This document shows positions 30,305 through 40,843 of a stretch of DNA of 53,655 nt, piece by piece; position 1 is the stretch's first letter; each line of letters starts with the position of its first letter. The stretch comes from a virus. Lineage: Duplodnaviria; Heunggongvirae; Uroviricota; Caudoviricetes. Location of the stretch: the IMG/VR virus record IMGVR_UViG_643348545_000009, positions 1 through 53,655 of that record, one strand, 5' to 3'. The notes below the pieces were generated by a model. That model did not search any database. It was given only the letters and a program-made list of their open reading frames with translations, and was not told the origin of the DNA. Both the position numbers and the translations under genes were made by a program.

Positions 30305-30562
30305 CTACTTCGCTTTTGCTTCCGCTCGCTTACACCGGCGCTTTTCTTTCTTCTCGGCTTTTGCCATGTCCATGAATGCCTGCATGATCGAGTTCCGCAT
30401 CATGTAGCTGACAAAGTGATGATTGACACAGCCGTTGAGGCGCAACTGCTCGCCAAACTCATCCACCGAGGCCAATGCTTCCATCACGCCCTTCTCGCCT
30501 TTCATGAACGCTGAGAAGTCGCGCCCCGCTCTGGAGGCGCATTCAATGACACGATCACTCAT
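30305..30562 (-). CDS. Hypothetical protein, translationally coupled to KilA-N gene
   Basis: 85-aa ORF; ATG overlaps stop of upstream gene (ATGA); terminator-like hairpin GCCCACCAGTAGATGGGC just downstream. Confidence 0.45.
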   Translation of the reverse strand: MSDRVIECASRAGRDFSAFMKGEKGVMEALASVDEFGEQLRLNGCVNHHFVSYMMRNSIMQAFMDMAKAEKKEKRRCKRAEAKAK

Positions 30563-31125
30563 CCCGGAAGCCCGGGGATTGTGATCTGCAACTGGTTAGC
30601 CAGGGAGTTAATCTCAGCGATCAAACCAGGTTTCGTGTAGCGCCATGCCGCAAGGCCTTGCCCGCAGAAGCTCGCCATATCTTTTTTCTGATCAAACTCA
30701 TGACACTTCATATTGAGCTGCGCACTTAAGCTGTTGCGATGCTGGAGTTCTCCGGTGAAGTAGTCATCCAGGACTTTATAGGCTGCATATTTAAATCCGG
30801 GGTTTAGCCATGCTGCATAATCATAAGCAACAAACTTCCCGCCATATGTTCCACCGTGTACACCGCGCTCAGTAAAAACCACAGATTCGTGGTTTTTCTC
30901 CAGCTCGGCTAAGAACTCTTTGGTCTGCTTGTTTCGCAGGTAGTGGTACGGAGATTCAGATTCACTTTTACCACTGGCTTTCCACATATCAGTGAGGCAG
31001 ATCATGCCATCTTCAGCGACACGGATTGGCTGATTGAAGAGGGTTAATGATTTCATGTCGTATACCTGTTCTTTGAAATGAACCTTTGCCGCATAGGAAA
31101 CCAGCCCACCGAGGCTCGCCAGCAC
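30559..31125 (-). CDS. KilA-N domain protein
   Basis: …SLTLFNQPIRVAEDGMICLTDMWKASGKSESESPYHYLRNKQTKEFLAELEK… KilA-N/APSES-like; true start may be the internal ATG at 31056. Confidence 0.65.
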   Translation of the reverse strand: MLASLGGLVSYAAKVHFKEQVYDMKSLTLFNQPIRVAEDGMICLTDMWKASGKSESESPYHYLRNKQTKEFLAELEKNHESVVFTERGVHGGTYGGKFVAYDYAAWLNPGFKYAAYKVLDDYFTGELQHRNSLSAQLNMKCHEFDQKKDMASFCGQGLAAWRYTKPGLIAEINSLANQLQITIPGLPG

Positions 31126-31254: not shown

Positions 31255-31584
31255 CTAACCGATGAGTTTTAAATCAGCTTTTCGGTGTTTTTTCTGATCG
31301 GTATAAAAATTTTCATGTGGACCGATGCTAAGGAGGTAGAGCTCAAGTTTATCGTCAAGCCAGCTGTAACCCAGAAGCACCAGTTGATTATTCAGCTGAA
31401 ATTTATGCACACGAAGAAAACTGAGGTCTCCTTTCTTTTGCGTTCCCAACAGAGGATTATCAATTATTCTGTCGATCTCATCTTCCACAACTTTCAGTTG
31501 CGCTTCCGGGAGTTTACTCAGAGACTTTTCAAAACGCCGACTCTGATAAACATCAATTTCACGACCTGTCTGTTCTTCTGACAT
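31255..31584 (-). CDS. Type II toxin, RelE/ParE superfamily
   Basis: 109 aa; …GDLSFLRVHKFQLNNQLVLLGYSWLDDKLELYLLSIGPHENFY… typical RelE/ParE fold signature; overlaps upstream antitoxin gene by 26 nt. Confidence 0.7.
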   Translation of the reverse strand: MSEEQTGREIDVYQSRRFEKSLSKLPEAQLKVVEDEIDRIIDNPLLGTQKKGDLSFLRVHKFQLNNQLVLLGYSWLDDKLELYLLSIGPHENFYTDQKKHRKADLKLIG

Positions 31585-31789
31585 AACGCGTTACCTTGTT
31601 GTGTCTGATTTCGCTTTGTGACAGCAGAACTTCGCTAATAAAACTGAATGGCAGATCTGGATTATCTTCAGCTATACGACCAATCTTAGCCCAGTGCTCA
31701 ATTTGCTTTGGTATGCTGCGACTTGCGGCATCAGCGTGAACCTTTACGTCACTGACGAAATCATCGTCTAAACGGATGCTTGTTGCCAT
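31559..31789 (-). CDS. Type II antitoxin, ParD-like
   Basis: 76 aa MATSIRLDDDFVSDVKVHADAASRSIPKQIEHWAKIGRIAEDNPDLPFSFISEVLL… matching the ParD-like antitoxin family pattern. Confidence 0.7.
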   Translation of the reverse strand: MATSIRLDDDFVSDVKVHADAASRSIPKQIEHWAKIGRIAEDNPDLPFSFISEVLLSQSEIRHNKVTRYVRRTDRS

Positions 31790-31930
31790 TATGGGGTGCC
31801 TCTCTGTGGTTGTACTTCATGCGGTGCGTACGCATACGCTATGGAAAAGCGCACCTAAATCATGCAACAAATTGTCGCATAATGCAATCTTTACCTCCGC
31901 AGAAGATTGACAGCATTCATGCTGGCTCTG

Positions 31931-32398
31931 TTAATTCAGGCACTGAGTACGGATATATTCCTGTGCCCCTTCCAGTTGCTTCTGCATCGTCATCAGCCGC
32001 TCTCTGAGGGTGAAATAATCCCGTTCAGCGGTGTCTGCCAGTCGGGGGCCGGTTGCATTATCCACGCGGGCGGTGCCGGTGGCTTCACGCACGGGACCTG
32101 GACAGGTGGCGTTGATACGCAGGCTGCGGCGACCAGCGGCAACGTCAGCGCGAAGAGTTTCATTTTCAGCTCTCGCATCAGCTAATTCCCTCGAGTATTT
32201 TGCATCGAGCGCAGCAACATCACGCTGGCGCACCTGCATATCAGTAATGGTTGCGTTTGCCAGCTCCAGCTCTCTGACTTTTTTATCGCGCTGCGCTTTG
32301 TAGGTGATGGCGTTATCGCGGTAATGATTCAGCCCCAGACTAAGCACACCACAGGCTACCAGCAGGACAATAATCACCACACACAGAACACGGTTCAT
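31931..32398 (-). CDS. Rz: i-spanin Rz
   Basis: N-terminal TM ([21 protein letters not shown]) then coiled-coil periplasmic domain; contains embedded Rz1 frame. Confidence 0.8.
31993..32163 (-). CDS. Rz1: o-spanin Rz1 (lipoprotein embedded in Rz)
   Basis: [34 protein letters not shown]…: lipobox AAAC, proline-rich, in +1 frame within Rz. Confidence 0.75.
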
Positions 32399-32842: not shown

Positions 32843-33538
32843 TCATGCTGCGGTAGCTCTCCATGCAGCAAGCAGACCAGCAATCCACTCAACACCTTTT
32901 GGGGTGAATTTAACCTGCGTAAAAGCATGACCATTGCCCGTCTCGCCCGTTTTCACGCTAAACCGCCCCGCATCCAGGTGATGCGAGTAAGGCGTCATTT
33001 TTCCAGCGAGGCGATACATTATTCCGTTCTCCAACAAAAACAGCCGGAAATCGGTTTCTTTGATACCGAGTAACTTAGCAACTTCCCGGAATCCCATCAG
33101 ACCAGATGCTTCAACATAGTTATCAACAAATTCAGCCTTCGGCGCTGCTATTGCCAGTTGATTTTCCAGCACTGCTTTCTGTTCAGCCAGTTTTGCCGCA
33201 AATCGCAACGCCTCAGGTAAAGTCCGGGGGATCTGAATACCATGCATCGCTTTGAGTCTTGCCAGCACAGAACGACGAACGGCCTTTGACTCCCTCATGC
33301 CAACGAGCATCATCTGGTCAAAATCCAGATCATAGTATGCCGTTCTTGTCTGGTTATTGTTTAACCGGAATTTTTTTCCGGTTCCATCAAGCTCTAGCTC
33401 ATCCTCAATTTTTGCAAGAAACTTACGCGGTTCATGAGGGACTTCTCCGGCTTCTGCCCGGGCTGGATTAATAATGTTATTCAGAAAATCCAGACTACTC
33501 ATGGATATTTCATGATCGACAGAAATCATCTCTTTCAT
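32843..33538 (-). CDS. Phage antirepressor-like protein (KilA-C/Ant C-terminal domain)
   Basis: 231 aa; C-terminal …FVDNYVEASGLMGFREVAKLLGIKETDFRLFLLENGIMYRLAGK… antirepressor-type pattern; inserted between endolysin and Rz. Confidence 0.6.
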   Translation of the reverse strand: MKEMISVDHEISMSSLDFLNNIINPARAEAGEVPHEPRKFLAKIEDELELDGTGKKFRLNNNQTRTAYYDLDFDQMMLVGMRESKAVRRSVLARLKAMHGIQIPRTLPEALRFAAKLAEQKAVLENQLAIAAPKAEFVDNYVEASGLMGFREVAKLLGIKETDFRLFLLENGIMYRLAGKMTPYSHHLDAGRFSVKTGETGNGHAFTQVKFTPKGVEWIAGLLAAWRATAA

Positions 33539-33811: not shown

Positions 33812-34345
33812 TTATCTGTCGATTCCCCAGCACGCCAGCGCGCTCTCCTGGTCTCGCCGGGATACCTGACCGTAACAGTTATTTGAGCGAATACGGCAGT
33901 CCCTGCCACCGTCCTTAATCCACCAGCGAATCGCCTCACATGCTCCCCTGCGATCACCAGCATTAATTCGTTTATAAAACGTCGACGGGAAACACTTACC
34001 GGGACCAATGTTGTACGGACAGAATGACGCGATCCCCGCTTTCTGGGGTTCGGTCAGCGGCACTCTGATGTTTTTCTCCACCCACGCCAGCGCTTTATCA
34101 CGCTCAATGGCGTTAACCCGGTCGCATTTTCCCTTCGACAGCTTCATGCCAGGAATAACAGGCTTACCATCCACCCGGGTGGCTCCACGGCAGATGGTCC
34201 AGATCCCCGCACCATCACGGTATGCCATGGTGTGGTTACCTTCTTTTTCGTCAAGAAACTGGTCGAGGATTTCAGGCGCAGACGCCCCTGCACCAATCAG
34301 CGCCAGAACGACAGCCGACAGGCCGTATTTGATTTTTGCGTTCAT
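33812..34345 (-). CDS. R: SAR endolysin (phage lysozyme with N-terminal signal-anchor-release domain)
   Basis: 177 aa; N-terminal MNAKIKYGLSAVVLALIGAGASAPEIL… SAR-like segment, lysozyme core …GIWTICRGAT… resembling R21/P1 Lyz. Confidence 0.85.
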   Translation of the reverse strand: MNAKIKYGLSAVVLALIGAGASAPEILDQFLDEKEGNHTMAYRDGAGIWTICRGATRVDGKPVIPGMKLSKGKCDRVNAIERDKALAWVEKNIRVPLTEPQKAGIASFCPYNIGPGKCFPSTFYKRINAGDRRGACEAIRWWIKDGGRDCRIRSNNCYGQVSRRDQESALACWGIDR

Positions 34346-34717: not shown

Positions 34718-35174
34718 CTTCAATGCAATAATCGTAAAACGCCGCGAACTGCTCATCGCGGCGTTTTTTTGCATCTTCAGAAGGCATCAGCGTCGACAGT
34801 TTTTTATTCAGTTCAACGACGCAATTCTCCAGTTTTTCAATGCGTGATTCGATATCATCTTTTTCTGACAGTATCGTGTTATATGCATTGTTAATTTGTA
34901 TGGTATACCGATCTTCGGAACAAAGGCACTTTTCCTGTGACTGTTCATCCCCTTCACATAACCCGGCAGCAATATCCATGAAAAACTGCTTCGCCTTCTT
35001 TTTCGCCTCAGCTTCGTAAAACTCCAGCGGGGCACCTTCAACACGATCAAGATCAATCACCACATTTGGCAACAACAGTGACGTATACCCACCCGTTTCC
35101 AGCGCTACAGTAACAGTAATCTTATCCGGGTAATTATTTATCCCTTTAACAACCAGTTCGTATTGTTTATTCAT
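34665..35174 (-). CDS. Hypothetical protein inserted between holin and endolysin
   Basis: 169 aa, soluble, coiled-coil C-terminal half; ATG at 35172-35174 overlaps the S21-like frame stop (ATGA). Confidence 0.5.
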   Translation of the reverse strand: MNKQYELVVKGINNYPDKITVTVALETGGYTSLLLPNVVIDLDRVEGAPLEFYEAEAKKKAKQFFMDIAAGLCEGDEQSQEKCLCSEDRYTIQINNAYNTILSEKDDIESRIEKLENCVVELNKKLSTLMPSEDAKKRRDEQFAAFYDYCIEVTRRNFVKAFEESKSLQ

Positions 35175-35211
35175 CGTCTACTCTCCCCGCGCCGCCTTAC
35201 GCCGGTCTTCT

Positions 35212-35394
35212 TTAATCTTTGAAATACCGGTTCGTCAGATATGTCAGCAGCCCAAACAGCAGACTCCCCAGCACGCCTATTGCCGCCCACTGAGACGGGG
35301 AAACCCTGTCCAGAAACTGCAGGAACCAGTAGCCCGTTCCCACCGCTGACGTGGTGTATGACACACCTGTTGTGATTTTTTCCATCTGGTACAT
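35212..35394 (-). CDS. S: Pinholin (S21-like class II holin), C-terminally truncated by a +1 frameshift
   Basis: [60 protein letters not shown] matches S21 as recalled (…[25 protein letters not shown]…LTYLTN.YFK); dual Met starts; the S21-like tail [13 protein letters not shown] is encoded in another frame. Confidence 0.8.
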
Positions 35395-35469
35395 ACCCCG
35401 TCTCCCGTACTCGGAAGCTCACAACAACAAAAGGGCCACCAGCTCTTTACTGATGGCCCTGCCCCGCCG

Positions 35470-36119: not shown

Positions 36120-38108
36120 TTATGATGATGCCCGGCTTTCGTTAACTTTGACTGTGACCGTATCAAGCAGTACAGGATACGTCGCTTTTGCCCCCGTGAT
36201 ATCTGTCAGCGTCAGCGTATCTGCTGTAAAGCCATCATTTGTCCACATCACAAGGTCAAACGCCGTCTGCTCTGTACCATCAATTACCGGAACGACTCTT
36301 TCGCTGTTATTTCCCGCAAAGCGGAAAACAACCGTATGCCAGTTATGGTCAAACGCACCAAATGTACCCAGTTGTGCATTCGACGTGCCCTTGTGGTGCA
36401 TAAGATTCAGATTTGATGCATCCGTCTGAAGGAAGAATGATGCCAGCATACTGTTTGCTGCCGCGCCTGACGCCCACTGCGACACCGGCCAGTAGAGACC
36501 AAAGACAAACTGTCCGTTCACCAGTTCGCTTCCATCCGGAATTTTGAACCGTACGGCAATTTCACCCCCCTTGCTGAGAAGATTTTTTGCCTCCTCCACT
36601 GCAACAGTACGGAACATTTTCCAGGACGTCAGTTTACCGGGCTGTTTTTCCAGTCGTAGCGCTTTCCGTCCACCGTCATCAGTCACAGTGCCTTTGCCAC
36701 CGGCAGCCCCCCACTGCTGCTCTGTCCATACACCATTTCCACTGTTCGCATCATATTCAGCCACCGTCCTGGTACTGCTCACGGCCTCATCATGACCAGT
36801 ACCAGCAACACCGCCATCCTGCGGTTTCTCAACACCCGGTACCCCCGGACTGACATCATCACCGGGAGTTGTACCACCCAACTGCGGTGCGCTCTGCCCG
36901 GTAAGGAACGATAATGTCCGCCCGGCGTACTGCAAAATGGCACCTGCCAGGCGGTCTGAAACAATGCCTCTTCGCGCCCATGAACTGAAGTGCGTTTTAC
37001 GATCGGCTGACGTCCAGTTACTGGCAGTGCGTGACGCAGCACCATAGTATCCCGCCGGGATAATGTCCGGATCTTCTGACGGCTCGTTTGTCGGCACATT
37101 CACACCATGCTCATCCGTCATCAACGGCACAAAGAAGATTTTTTTTGCGGATTTCGTCTTGTATGCACCATACACCGCATCGTATTGCGAAGAATAAGTC
37201 TGCTTCCAGTAGTAGGTCGTGTCGCCACAAATCCAGGGAACCGATGACGGAGAGCCCCCGAGACACTGACCTCCGAATTCCGACAGGTCAGAACGATATT
37301 TTTCCACCATGGAATCAAACAGCCCCGGCTGAGTGGCGTATGCACCCTGTTTCAAATCAAACTCGCCCTGCATCCAGACCACTGCAAGCAGAATATTTTT
37401 AGGGTTAGCCTTCAGTGCGGCCTGAGTACGGGTAAGCAGGTCCTTGTACAGTGGCTTATCTACACCCCAGCGTGCCGAGGTCTCGCTTGCGCCGGTGGAT
37501 TCGCTGAAAGTACCTTCATCGCCCTCCAAAAATGCAGAACCACCACGGCAGCACGGAACCAGAAGAATACCGGCATTCGCCGGAATAAACGGCAGCAGTT
37601 TTTTGGCGATATGCAGCCCCTGCCCCACGGTTCCGTACTGCCCCTTTGACAAGTCCGCTTTCGGATGGTTAAGACGGCTCATGTCCTGTACATCATGCAG
37701 ACAATGGTCCGCCGGAATGATGTCGTTATATTTACAGGCGACACCACCCGGTGTCACCGTACTGCGACGCGCCAGTTGCTTAATGCGCGGGTCCGGACGG
37801 TCATATGTCTCCGGCAGCGGCAGCCCTTCACCAAAAGACATTGAGTTTGACTGCCCCGCCAGAACAACAACAAAGTAATACTCCGGTTCGCTGGTGGTGC
37901 TGATAACTGTGCCTTCTCCATCCGACGGCTTCACCACCACAGGTGTGGTGACATCACCTTCCGCCGCAATGGCCTGCATCAGGGTATAAGGCGTGATGGC
38001 GACAGGGCTGCCAAATGGCTGCCACCCCTCCTTCAGTTTTTGTGTCAGTCGCTCCGCAAGGTCTGACGGCGACGCCGCCCTGACCACATCGTAGTGTTTA
38101 AATGTCAT
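36120..38108 (-). CDS. nanS-p: Prophage-encoded sialate O-acetylesterase-like protein (NanS-p-like; DUF1737 N-terminus plus SGNH-type esterase)
   Basis: 662 aa; N-terminal MTFKHYDVVRAASPSDLAERLTQKLKEGWQPFGSPVAI… DUF1737-like; …VVLAGQSNSM… SGNH-like motif; position between Q and lysis genes as in Stx-type phages; GGGAGG upstream of ATG. Confidence 0.8.
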   Translation of the reverse strand: MTFKHYDVVRAASPSDLAERLTQKLKEGWQPFGSPVAITPYTLMQAIAAEGDVTTPVVVKPSDGEGTVISTTSEPEYYFVVVLAGQSNSMSFGEGLPLPETYDRPDPRIKQLARRSTVTPGGVACKYNDIIPADHCLHDVQDMSRLNHPKADLSKGQYGTVGQGLHIAKKLLPFIPANAGILLVPCCRGGSAFLEGDEGTFSESTGASETSARWGVDKPLYKDLLTRTQAALKANPKNILLAVVWMQGEFDLKQGAYATQPGLFDSMVEKYRSDLSEFGGQCLGGSPSSVPWICGDTTYYWKQTYSSQYDAVYGAYKTKSAKKIFFVPLMTDEHGVNVPTNEPSEDPDIIPAGYYGAASRTASNWTSADRKTHFSSWARRGIVSDRLAGAILQYAGRTLSFLTGQSAPQLGGTTPGDDVSPGVPGVEKPQDGGVAGTGHDEAVSSTRTVAEYDANSGNGVWTEQQWGAAGGKGTVTDDGGRKALRLEKQPGKLTSWKMFRTVAVEEAKNLLSKGGEIAVRFKIPDGSELVNGQFVFGLYWPVSQWASGAAANSMLASFFLQTDASNLNLMHHKGTSNAQLGTFGAFDHNWHTVVFRFAGNNSERVVPVIDGTEQTAFDLVMWTNDGFTADTLTLTDITGAKATYPVLLDTVTVKVNESRASS

Positions 38109-38556: not shown

Positions 38557-38812
38557 CAACATAGCATTTAACGGGGAACCTGTTTTCTGCAGTAAAAAGG
38601 CCCACCGGAGCGGATGGGCCTGGAAGGATAGCGGTCATGTGATGCCGGTTTCCCGGTAACTCAGCACCGGTATCTGAGTCAACGTTTTCTCTACTGGGTC
38701 ATTTCCGATACGCCCTGCCTGCTGACAGGCTTTCATCACATCTGAAAATATAGCACCCTGACTGATACTGTAGTACCTAAGGTTCCAGAAACTGTGATGT
38801 ATCCGGCACAGA

Positions 38813-39039
38813 AAAGCCCCTCCGGAGAGGGGCTGGAGAGTGGCGCTATGTGCCATTGCATGATGCCGGGTGCCTCCCGGTGAGTTCAGTATCAGCACCT
38901 GAACCCGCACAGAAAGGATAAGGGTCGGTGACAAAACACCAGTCGCTGATTGCCCCTCCGCACAGGGGGATTCACCATGCCAGTTTCTTTTAACAAACTC
39001 CCCGCAAACCAGACAACAGTCAACCGCCTGAATTGTGAG
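38813..39039. repeat. Copy B of the ~230-bp hairpin-rich element
   Basis: Same ordered motif set as copy A; diverged spacers. Confidence 0.6.
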
Positions 39040-39163
39040 GTATTTAAAAATTTCAACGGGTAACTGATACCCTGCTAATCGCCTGATGCTTTCTTTTTCA
39101 GCAACGGGAAAGCAACAACCACCACACCCACCAGCCGCCCATTTACCACAAATAAAAAAGCCT

Positions 39164-39361
39164 TCAGGACTGAAGGCGTCTGTAACAACCGAACTGATAG
39201 TCTGCCAGCCCCGCCATAACAAGCTGGGTCAGTATTAACTGGCAGCGTTCGCGTGAAAGGTAAGTATTCTGCGCAATCTCCCCGACTGTCGCCGGGTCGG
39301 TGACGCTTAATTCATTAAACACCACTCTGGCGGTTTCGGTCATATCCTGCTGTTTTAGCAT
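39164..39361 (-). CDS. Hypothetical small protein downstream of the late terminator
   Basis: 65 aa from ATG 39361 (MLKQQDMTETARVVFNELSV…); followed by terminator-like hairpin GCCTTCAG-GAC-TGAAGGC with U-run. Confidence 0.35.
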   Translation of the reverse strand: MLKQQDMTETARVVFNELSVTDPATVGEIAQNTYLSRERCQLILTQLVMAGLADYQFGCYRRLQS

Positions 39362-39803: not shown

Positions 39804-40487
39804 CTATTTTGCAAGATATGGTTCTAAATTAAGCGACTTTTTCCGTGAACGTACCCGCATTACTGAAATAAGAGCATCCCTGTCCAGCATCTCTGCACTA
39901 CCCCGCATAGCCAACCAGTGAGGCCTGTGTGTTTTTGTCCATGTAGATTTAGCAACTCCTATGAACAGCGCTAACTCCTGATGTTCATAGGTCTCACGCC
40001 CTGCCAGCTCACTCTTCACATCCTGTGCCGCCAGCCAAATCAGTTTCTTCAGACGATCCAGCGTTTTCCCTGCAATTTTTCTGGTACCAGCCTGAGCTTT
40101 AAACTCACCCCATACCCATTGTGTTATAGTGACCTGATCTTCCCAGCAAACATTTCCACTGTAGCACCACAGTAACCACGCCTTCTGATGTTCTTCCAGT
40201 TCCAGAACGGCACGCCGCCACGATGATGTTGCAAACTCAACCGGTCTGACCAGCGCAATTGATGAGCCTTTCGCCAGTGATTGTTTACCCGGGATCGGTG
40301 GATTATCCCGCGTGATCATTTTTCCGGTTACCTCATCGCGATAACGAATTTTTTTGCGTCTGTAACGCCCTGTATCGAACAGGGCATTCTCCTGCCAGGC
40401 TTCCAGCTGGCCTTTTGTCGCCCCACTGAGATCCGCAGTGGCAATCATGAGTTGCTCACGAACAAACTGTAAATACTGGTTATTCAT
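39804..40487 (-). CDS. Q: Late-gene antiterminator Q
   Basis: 227 aa from ATG 40487 (overlaps rusA stop, ATGA); Q-family pattern and position upstream of the late region. Confidence 0.75.
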   Translation of the reverse strand: MNNQYLQFVREQLMIATADLSGATKGQLEAWQENALFDTGRYRRKKIRYRDEVTGKMITRDNPPIPGKQSLAKGSSIALVRPVEFATSSWRRAVLELEEHQKAWLLWCYSGNVCWEDQVTITQWVWGEFKAQAGTRKIAGKTLDRLKKLIWLAAQDVKSELAGRETYEHQELALFIGVAKSTWTKTHRPHWLAMRGSAEMLDRDALISVMRVRSRKKSLNLEPYLAK

Positions 40488-40843
40488 GCGCACTCCAGTT
40501 CTGTGATTTTTATCCCCAGCCGCCCGCCAGGAACAGGCAGGCCACGCACAATATTGATTTCATCAAACTGCTCATCGTCCATTAACAACCCCGCGTGCGT
40601 CAGCGCATCCAGCGGTGCTTTCAGAATATTGTCCAGGTCACGACGACGCTTATCCGGTGGCTCTGCAATAATTTTTATTGCCAGCCGTCCGGACAGGCTT
40701 AATTTCAGTCGCTGCTGGCGAACAATAAGCGACACTGCCCGGCGATAACGCTCCCCGGCTTTTGATACAAAATATGTGCTGCCACGGCGTCGCCAGTAAG
40801 TGTTCACCGTCGGCGGGTAAGGTAAAACCAAATCTATGAGCAT
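40484..40843 (-). CDS. rusA: Holliday junction resolvase RusA
   Basis: 119 aa MLIDLVLPYPPTVNTYWRRRG… with conserved RusA motifs (…DLDNILKAPLDAL…). Confidence 0.9.
   Translation of the reverse strand: MLIDLVLPYPPTVNTYWRRRGSTYFVSKAGERYRRAVSLIVRQQRLKLSLSGRLAIKIIAEPPDKRRRDLDNILKAPLDALTHAGLLMDDEQFDEINIVRGLPVPGGRLGIKITELECA

Follow-up and report, generated by a model that had tools for sequence, protein, structure and literature searches.

The window analysed here, i.e., the whole stretch of 53,655 nucleotides, corresponds approximately to positions 1,664,939-1,718,593 of CU928162.2, the chromosome of Escherichia coli ED1a, a commensal strain of phylogroup B2 (PMC2617782). It carries a lambdoid prophage whose lysis cassette lies on the minus strand between positions 30559 and 35394. 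From its upstream end, the cassette encodes a holin, a DUF1327/YdfR-family protein, a lysozyme, an antirepressor with an ANT domain (32843-33538), and the spanins Rz and Rz1, with an 86-aa open reading frame on the opposite strand between the DUF1327 and lysozyme genes. Beyond Rz/Rz1 lie a ParD-like/ParE-like pair (~31255-31790) and a gene for a KilA-N protein (30559-31125). The N-terminus of the endolysin contains a Gly/Ala-rich hydrophobic stretch (YGLSAVVLALIGAGASAP), which suggests that the enzyme is of the SAR type. The holin is flanked by the same genes, encoding DUF1378, DUF826, and DUF1327, as its intact allele in other genomes. The setting is that of a Q-dependent late operon with a probable SAR-type endolysin and spanins, in which the DUF1327 and ANT genes are interspersed. 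The features on which our analysis rests are listed in Table 1.

Table 1. Features of the lysis module and of the holin gene, with positions in the window.
Feature	Positions	Strand	Basis or remark
Late-gene antiterminator Q, 229 aa, upstream of the lysis cassette	39804..40493	minus	PF06323, 297 bits, full-length match
Truncated class II (S21-type) pinholin ORF	35394..35212	minus	60 aa, stop TAA at 35214-35212
Dual start of the ED1a holin	Met1 35394-35392; Met4 35385-35383	minus	
Codon 27, TTT (Phe)	35314..35316	minus	TTG (Leu) in comparators; private L27F in TMD1
Codon 56, CGG (Arg)	35227..35229	minus	CTG (Leu) in all comparators; private G at 35228, L56R, cytoplasmic end of TMD2
One-base insertion, AAAG	35217..35220	minus	AAG or AAA in all relatives (alignments)
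Out-of-frame tail remnant with TAG at 35180-35178	35178..35216	minus	frame translation; TAG is the original 71-aa holin stop
DUF1327/YdfR-family gene, 169 aa	34665..35174	minus	ATG 3 nt after the original holin stop
Endolysin, 177 aa, full length	33812..34345	minus	Phage_lysozyme (Pfam match)
i-spanin Rz, 155 aa from MNRVLC..., intact	31931..32398	minus	PF03245, 168 bits
o-spanin Rz1 ORF embedded in Rz, 61 aa, intact	31993-32178		lipobox LVAAAC

Several other features were observed around the cassette. A strong terminator-like hairpin (35432-35460, minus strand), with a 12-bp stem and a T-rich tail, lies between the DUF826 gene and the ribosome-binding site of the holin; it is inside the late operon, where Q antitermination presumably carries transcription through it. 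A 662-aa carbohydrate esterase of the SASA family (DUF1737, SASA, and DUF6645 domains, 36120-38108) is encoded on the minus strand between Q and the holin. Stx phages carry nanS-p at the matching position. The 195-aa open reading frame at 38635-39222 had no Pfam match, and no tRNA genes were found in the window (1-53655). The prophage is a mosaic. Its tail-tip and host-specificity region is ~96% identical to that of the PhiR12 phages and its head and tail-shaft genes resemble those of Lys8385Vzw and Stx2c phages (~92%), whereas near-identity to PhiR12 is confined to ~1.6 kb around the holin.

We sampled genes across the prophage, and those for the integrase, exonuclease, Q, endolysin, Rz/Rz1, TerL, capsid protease, and portal are all full-length open reading frames whose domain matches are also full length. 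Of the sampled genes only that of the holin is damaged, and the prophage is not visibly decayed. General prophage decay, one of the explanations first offered for the state of the holin, is thus not supported.

The holin gene encodes 60 residues and is annotated as a "putative phage lysis protein S" (UniProt B7MV00, CAR07916.2). The protein matches PF04971 (Bacteriophage P21 holin S) with a score of 93.2 bits (E = 9.4e-27), far above the Pfam gathering score of 26 bits, but only over profile positions 1-55 of 64. There was no matching model in NCBIfam. The sequence-only reading had assigned the gene to the S21 type from a sequence of the phage 21 holin that proved exact, i.e., 100% identical over 71 aa to the protein of Escherichia phage 21 (OL657228.1). 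A gap-free alignment with S21 shows that the ED1a protein keeps the topological features of the family, a Gly/Ala/Ser/Thr-rich TMD1 and a pore-lining TMD2 (W36...Y57). Of the 59 residues common to the four aligned sequences 43 are invariant, including the motif TYLTN. The ED1a holin thus probably has the two-TMD topology of pinholins. Members of this family depolarise the membrane through small heptameric pinholes, which leads to the release of SAR endolysins. The allelic class to which the ED1a holin belongs, starting with MYQMEK (35383-35394, minus strand), keeps in both its intact and its ED1a form the dual start of S21 at Met1 and Met4, with Tyr2-Gln3 in place of Lys2-Ser3. The antiholin character of S21-71 comes from an extra basic residue, and the N-terminal extension of the longer product of this class (M-Y-Q, against M-K-S-M in S21) has no such residue.

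The ED1a protein departs from its family at the C-terminus. The last codons of the gene are AAC (35232-30), CGG (35229-27), TAT, TTC, AAA (35220-18), GAT (35217-15), and TAA, so that the protein ends in …TNRYFKD. The charged tail of the family, K-I-(K/R)-E-D-(R/K)-R-K-A-A-R-G-E, which ends at residue 71, is missing from the protein and is encoded in the +1 frame only. That a single extra base truncates an S21-type holin at residue 60 had been proposed from the letters of the DNA, and both the position of the stop and the frames proved right. The out-of-frame reading begins with ATT (35216-35214), and 3 nt separate its TAG from the ATG (35174) of the DUF1327 gene. Removing the minus-strand G at 35217 restores, as predicted, a 71-aa holin that aligns with S21 without gaps at 76% identity. 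The repaired protein matches PF04971 with 107.6 bits over profile positions 1-63 of 64, i.e., putting the tail codons back in frame raises the score by 14.4 bits. Because the repaired reading extends the family match in this way, the out-of-frame codons are the holin family's own tail. Moreover, the DNA past the extra base is the same as in phage PhiR12_1 and E. coli NCTC9112, which have intact genes, so the resemblance of the +1 frame to an S21 C-terminus does not arise by chance. The tail-coding sequence also contains the Shine-Dalgarno-like GGGGAGAG of the DUF1327 gene. The collection lists the identical DUF1327 protein in 705 blocks; in each of the nine other loci shown, the holin encoded upstream of it has 71 or 75 aa.

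To place this C-terminus among its homologues, we anchored 129 family representatives on the PSQW motif. The truncation would have been unremarkable if homologues normally ended in …YFKD, but they do not: 79 of the 129 end at position 71, and the ED1a holin is the shortest and the sole member ending at 60. All of the large holin clusters have proteins of 71 aa (985, 914, 1584, 402, 297, and 201 members). The tail YFKI(K/R)ED(R/K)RKAARGE is kept in at least nine genera, namely Escherichia, Citrobacter, Salmonella, Enterobacter, Cronobacter, Kosakonia, Erwinia, Franconibacter, and Klebsiella. It stays conserved while the sequence of TMD1 varies, and it is covered by the PF04971 profile. In ED1a the part that is lost, I(K/R)EDRRKAARGE, amounts together with K59 to six basic and three acidic residues.

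Other disrupted ends occur in the family. The tails of some singletons (P0063, P0103, and others) are disrupted right after YFK59, and P0063 is a 104-aa fusion between holin and DUF1327. These cases suggest that the A-rich stretch TTCAAAATTAAAGAAGA might be a mild hot spot for indels. As read from these sequences, damage at the A-rich spot after K59 appears sporadic and recurrent, without spread. A different one-base insertion is found near the end of the holin gene in SCU-104 (locus L003, 1607-1834; also P0027 and L016), with GCGCGGGGG instead of GCGCGGGG. It gives a 75-aa holin ending in ...AARGRVDDE, which overlaps the start of DUF1327. This variant is not a singleton, as its form starting at Met4 (P0027, 72 aa) represents a cluster of 81 members.

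The nearest relatives of the ED1a allele are those of phages PhiR12_1, PhiR12_2, and PhiR12_5 and of E. coli NCTC9112, which encode a 71-aa holin and are 99.3% identical over 401 bp; SCU-104 and G1/2 were the further loci in this close alignment. Within the holin gene, ED1a differs from PhiR12 and NCTC9112 at exactly three positions (Table 1). The first is the insertion, which shifts the frame and stops the protein after residue 60 (...Y57-F58-K59-D60). The nearest relatives read TTC AAG ATT at this place and other alleles AAA-ATT, whereas ED1a reads AAAGATT. As judged from the alignment, the extra base may equally be an A (AAG to AAAG) or a G (AAA-ATT to AAAGATT), and the same protein is restored whichever of the two is taken out. 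The two other changes, L27F and L56R, had escaped the sequence-only reading, although the Arg is visible in ...TNRYFKD. Position 27 is naturally variable in the family (L, W, V, F, or M; Trp in S21), and L27F is therefore probably neutral. Position 56 is nearly invariant as Leu across the family representatives, and TNRYF was absent from the other members among the 134 retrieved family proteins. On sequence grounds, L56R would shorten TMD2 at its cytoplasmic end.

The ED1a allele is unique to ED1a-like genomes in the collections searched. The 50-nt context of the frameshift was matched at 2806 places in 5426 complete E. coli genomes, but never exactly (49/50 with one gap at best). For the context of L56R there was none among 3926 places in the same genomes, and for the 51-nt context of L27F none in the 5426 genomes either. 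ED1a itself is absent from the annotated E. coli collection that was used. A 24-mer spanning the frameshift had no match in the viral or metagenome contig collections. A scan with a 19-mer gave 7 matches in species-representative genomes and 1 in viral contigs, against ~4 expected by chance, and all of them were in unrelated taxa and outside a holin context. The exact 60-aa protein was found only on CU928162.2 and in a second ED1a-like assembly (GCA_907175735.1), while the intact 71-aa allele, WP_000284506.1, is on at least 1000 contigs.

The three changes are also clustered. We compared ED1a with 11 comparators, i.e., nine loci with the identical downstream DUF1327 protein, PhiR12_1, and NCTC9112. 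Between 34294 and 36656 (2363 bp), the only columns private to ED1a are 35314, 35228, and 35217, all of them inside the 217-bp holin gene. Three changes placed at random would all land within 217 of 2363 bp with a probability of 7.7e-4, or of ~7e-3 once the two private sites that bound the region are counted, both being post hoc figures. The region below 34293 is uninformative because the lysozyme gene of ED1a is there a different allele from those of all 11 comparators. That all changes are non-synonymous is, with two substitutions only, not significant by itself.

Is the extra base real? The sequence-only reading had left this as a choice between a real mutation and a sequencing error. An indel of one base in a short A-rich run is the classic form of consensus error, the authors of the ED1a genome themselves warn that sequencing errors account for some of the single-base frameshifts seen in published genomes (PMC2617782), and the many similar lambdoid prophages of ED1a complicate assembly. 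If the base were an error, the true ED1a gene would be a normal 71-aa holin. Yet, the genome was sequenced by Sanger to 12-fold coverage and finished by primer walking (PMC2617782), and version 2 of the CU928162 record keeps the extra base. The second assembly, GCA_907175735.1, has an identical 10-kb locus and a different total length (5,208,720 against 5,209,548 bp), but it has the same record coordinates and may have been reference-guided. The run itself is just AAA and not a long homopolymer. The neighbouring changes count as well: the indel has private substitutions at distances of 8-11 and ~95 bp, whereas the flanking ~2.1 kb have none, and three independent errors within 100 bp of otherwise clean sequence are unlikely. 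The coverage, the second assembly, and the two nearby substitutions thus lean towards a real mutation, and we regard an error as quite improbable. The holin was not returned as a pseudogene in the accessible part of the supplementary tables of the ED1a paper (PMC2617782). Literature searches found nothing for the S21 tail peptide, no mention of GCA_907175735, and no identified test of the induction of this ED1a prophage.

The same clustering could be produced by recombination, if the three changes had been imported together from a divergent, unsampled holin allele. The region is indeed mosaic, as the distinct allele of the lysozyme gene below 34293 attests. But the contexts of the variants occur in none of the 5426 E. 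coli genomes nor among the 134 retrieved family proteins, and the rest of the holin gene is identical to the PhiR12/NCTC9112 allele, whereas a diverged tract would have added synonymous differences. We rejected such an import, for which the data searched hold no donor context, and we consider it very improbable.

We also considered whether both proteins could be made from the same gene. At TTC-AAA-G, a tRNA-Lys might slip from AAA to AAG in a programmed +1 ribosomal frameshift (as in prfB), yielding a 60-aa and a 71-aa holin; the sequence AAA-G does permit re-pairing in the +1 frame, and the product would be exactly the 71-aa reading with its tail. The site has none of the features of programmed frameshifting, however. 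The A-site codon is GAT, which is common and neither a stop nor rare, the stop comes one codon further, where tRNA-Asp cannot re-pair on AUU, and there is no Shine-Dalgarno-like stimulator upstream (...ACGAACCGGTATTTC). The allele is present in one strain among thousands of loci, without conservation, and relatives encode the 71-aa protein directly. We therefore rejected this explanation, whose probability seems to us close to negligible. Transcriptional slippage was likewise rejected on the sequence, the A run having only 3 nt.

Hence, we consider it likely that ED1a carries a genuine one-base insertion private to its lineage, and that the resulting tail-less pinholin is probably attenuated or mistimed. 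The insertion brings the stop forward and thereby removes the conserved, net-positive cytoplasmic tail. The 60-aa product should still insert in the membrane and might form pinholes, because both TMDs and the anchoring Lys59 are kept, but triggering without the tail would probably be weakened or mistimed. SAR endolysins are released slowly on their own, and lysis is not strictly dependent on the holin. Upon induction, lysis would then depend to a larger extent on the SAR endolysin being released slowly and independently of the holin, after which the spanins would act. Since this release does not need the holin, one would expect delayed or gradual lysis and not a complete block. The change looks like an early step in the attenuation or decay of the lysis module and not like a new mechanism.

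How much activity remains is less clear-cut than the mere deletion of a tail would suggest, given L27F, L56R, and published truncation data. In E. coli, S21-68 was shortened residue by residue down to K56 (K59 in the numbering of the 71-aa form) and still formed pores, i.e., its C-terminus was "largely dispensable for assembly" (bioRxiv 10.1101/2021.04.20.440580). The terminal basic residue was critical in these truncations, and Arg could replace Lys and even improved function (bioRxiv 10.1101/2021.04.20.440580). The screen scored pore formation under overexpression and not the timing of lysis (bioRxiv 10.1101/2021.04.20.440580). Because truncations to the same lysine still form pores, the ED1a allele is not necessarily null, and its holin could even have near-full activity, although the published variants lack the terminal Asp and L56R.

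These data also speak for a reading in which the truncation is neutral or compensated: the 60-aa protein would be a fully competent minimal pinholin, L56R would restore the charge at the membrane interface, and the timing of lysis would be essentially kept. Besides the pores formed by S21-68 ending at K56 and the weight of a basic C-terminal anchor (bioRxiv 10.1101/2021.04.20.440580), a count of charges fits this reading. Including the terminal carboxylate, LYFKD has a net charge of -1 and RYFKD of 0, as in the pore-forming S21(1-56), and L56R lies just 8-11 bp from the indel, both changes being private to ED1a. L56R could thus be compensatory. On the other hand, at least nine genera keep the tail while TMD1 drifts, which argues that loss of the tail is costly in nature. 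L56 is nearly invariant, an Arg at this site, three residues into the conserved TNLYFK motif, might be harmful in its own right, and the published assay concerned pores under overexpression and not phage lysis timing. On balance, we find neutrality or compensation rather unlikely, and keep an attenuated or mistimed holin as our preferred reading.

A bolder version of the same idea is that selection acted on the lysis gene of the resident prophage, the frameshift and L56R being coupled, with L56R compensating or tuning the effect of the frameshift, to give a minimal pinholin anchored by R56 and K59 instead of the tail. We think this doubtful. If it were true, evolution would have produced an equivalent of the engineered S21(1-56) variants, and the presence of three protein-altering changes in 217 bp, against none in the surrounding ~2.1 kb, would be due to selection instead of drift.

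The mutation is of an ordinary kind, private to one strain, and affects a well-characterised gene family in a long-published genome; it has little bearing beyond the strain. Only two points are mildly interesting, namely that three private changes, all of which alter the protein, lie close together, and that L56R may compensate for the lost charge. For annotators, B7MV00/CAR07916.2 should be read as a truncated allele of a 71-aa holin, on which the current annotation is silent. For those working with the strain, the otherwise complete-looking ED1a prophage may be predicted to lyse late, poorly, or asynchronously on induction. The tail is dispensable for pores in an engineered assay and nevertheless conserved in at least nine genera, which suggests that it has a role in timing or regulation. 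The ED1a allele provides a natural test case for this role.

Among the closest known systems is phage 21, whose holin belongs to the same PF04971 family. Its record (OL657228.1, CPT_21_66/67) annotates the S21-71 antipinholin and the S21-68 pinholin and, after them, a SAR endolysin and both spanins (i- and o-). The repaired ED1a holin is 76-77% identical over 71 aa without gaps, and shares the dual start at Met1/Met4, the core of TMD2 (...TYLTN.YFK), and, out of frame in ED1a, the tail. The Q-dependent late operon, the SAR-type endolysin, and the Rz/Rz1 spanins are further points of likeness. ED1a differs by its stop at K59-D60, without IREDRRKAARGE, by R56 instead of L56, and by Tyr2-Gln3 instead of Lys2-Ser3. 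In addition, DUF1327 and ANT genes are inserted between its holin, endolysin, and spanins, whereas S, R, and Rz are contiguous in phage 21.

The engineered truncations of S21-68 are a further close system; the shortest ends at K56, the very lysine that ED1a retains. In contrast to them, the ED1a protein has a terminal Asp, L56R, L27F, and a backbone of 77% identity, and it is a natural prophage allele. Closest in sequence is the intact allele WP_000284506.1 ("class II holin family protein"), found in PhiR12_1/2/5, NCTC9112, and G1/2, with identical DNA except for the three positions. Unlike ED1a it has 71 aa, L27, L56, and the full tail, and its carriers include phages whose deposited records are complete phage genomes and give K-12 or E. 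coli C as the host. A possible analogy is that with the cytoplasmic C-terminal regulatory domain of lambda S105 (Blasi et al. 1999, J Bacteriol 181:2922, as cited in PMC7312051), where the last TMD is likewise followed by a short cytoplasmic tail, highly charged and net-positive. This tail reportedly tunes the timing of lysis and is not needed for hole formation. Lambda S is nonetheless a class I holin with three TMDs, from an unrelated family, and makes large holes, unlike the class II holin of ED1a.

Finally, EssD and EssQ of E. coli K-12 are members of the same family that reside in the cryptic prophages DLP12 and Qin and, like the ED1a holin, belong to prophages of commensal or laboratory E. 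coli (the cluster bearing the name EssD, P0096, is at 77% identity). Both holins have the full length of 71 aa with an intact tail, and the DLP12 and Qin prophages are defective. ED1a shows the reverse situation, i.e., a prophage that looks complete and yet encodes a truncated holin.
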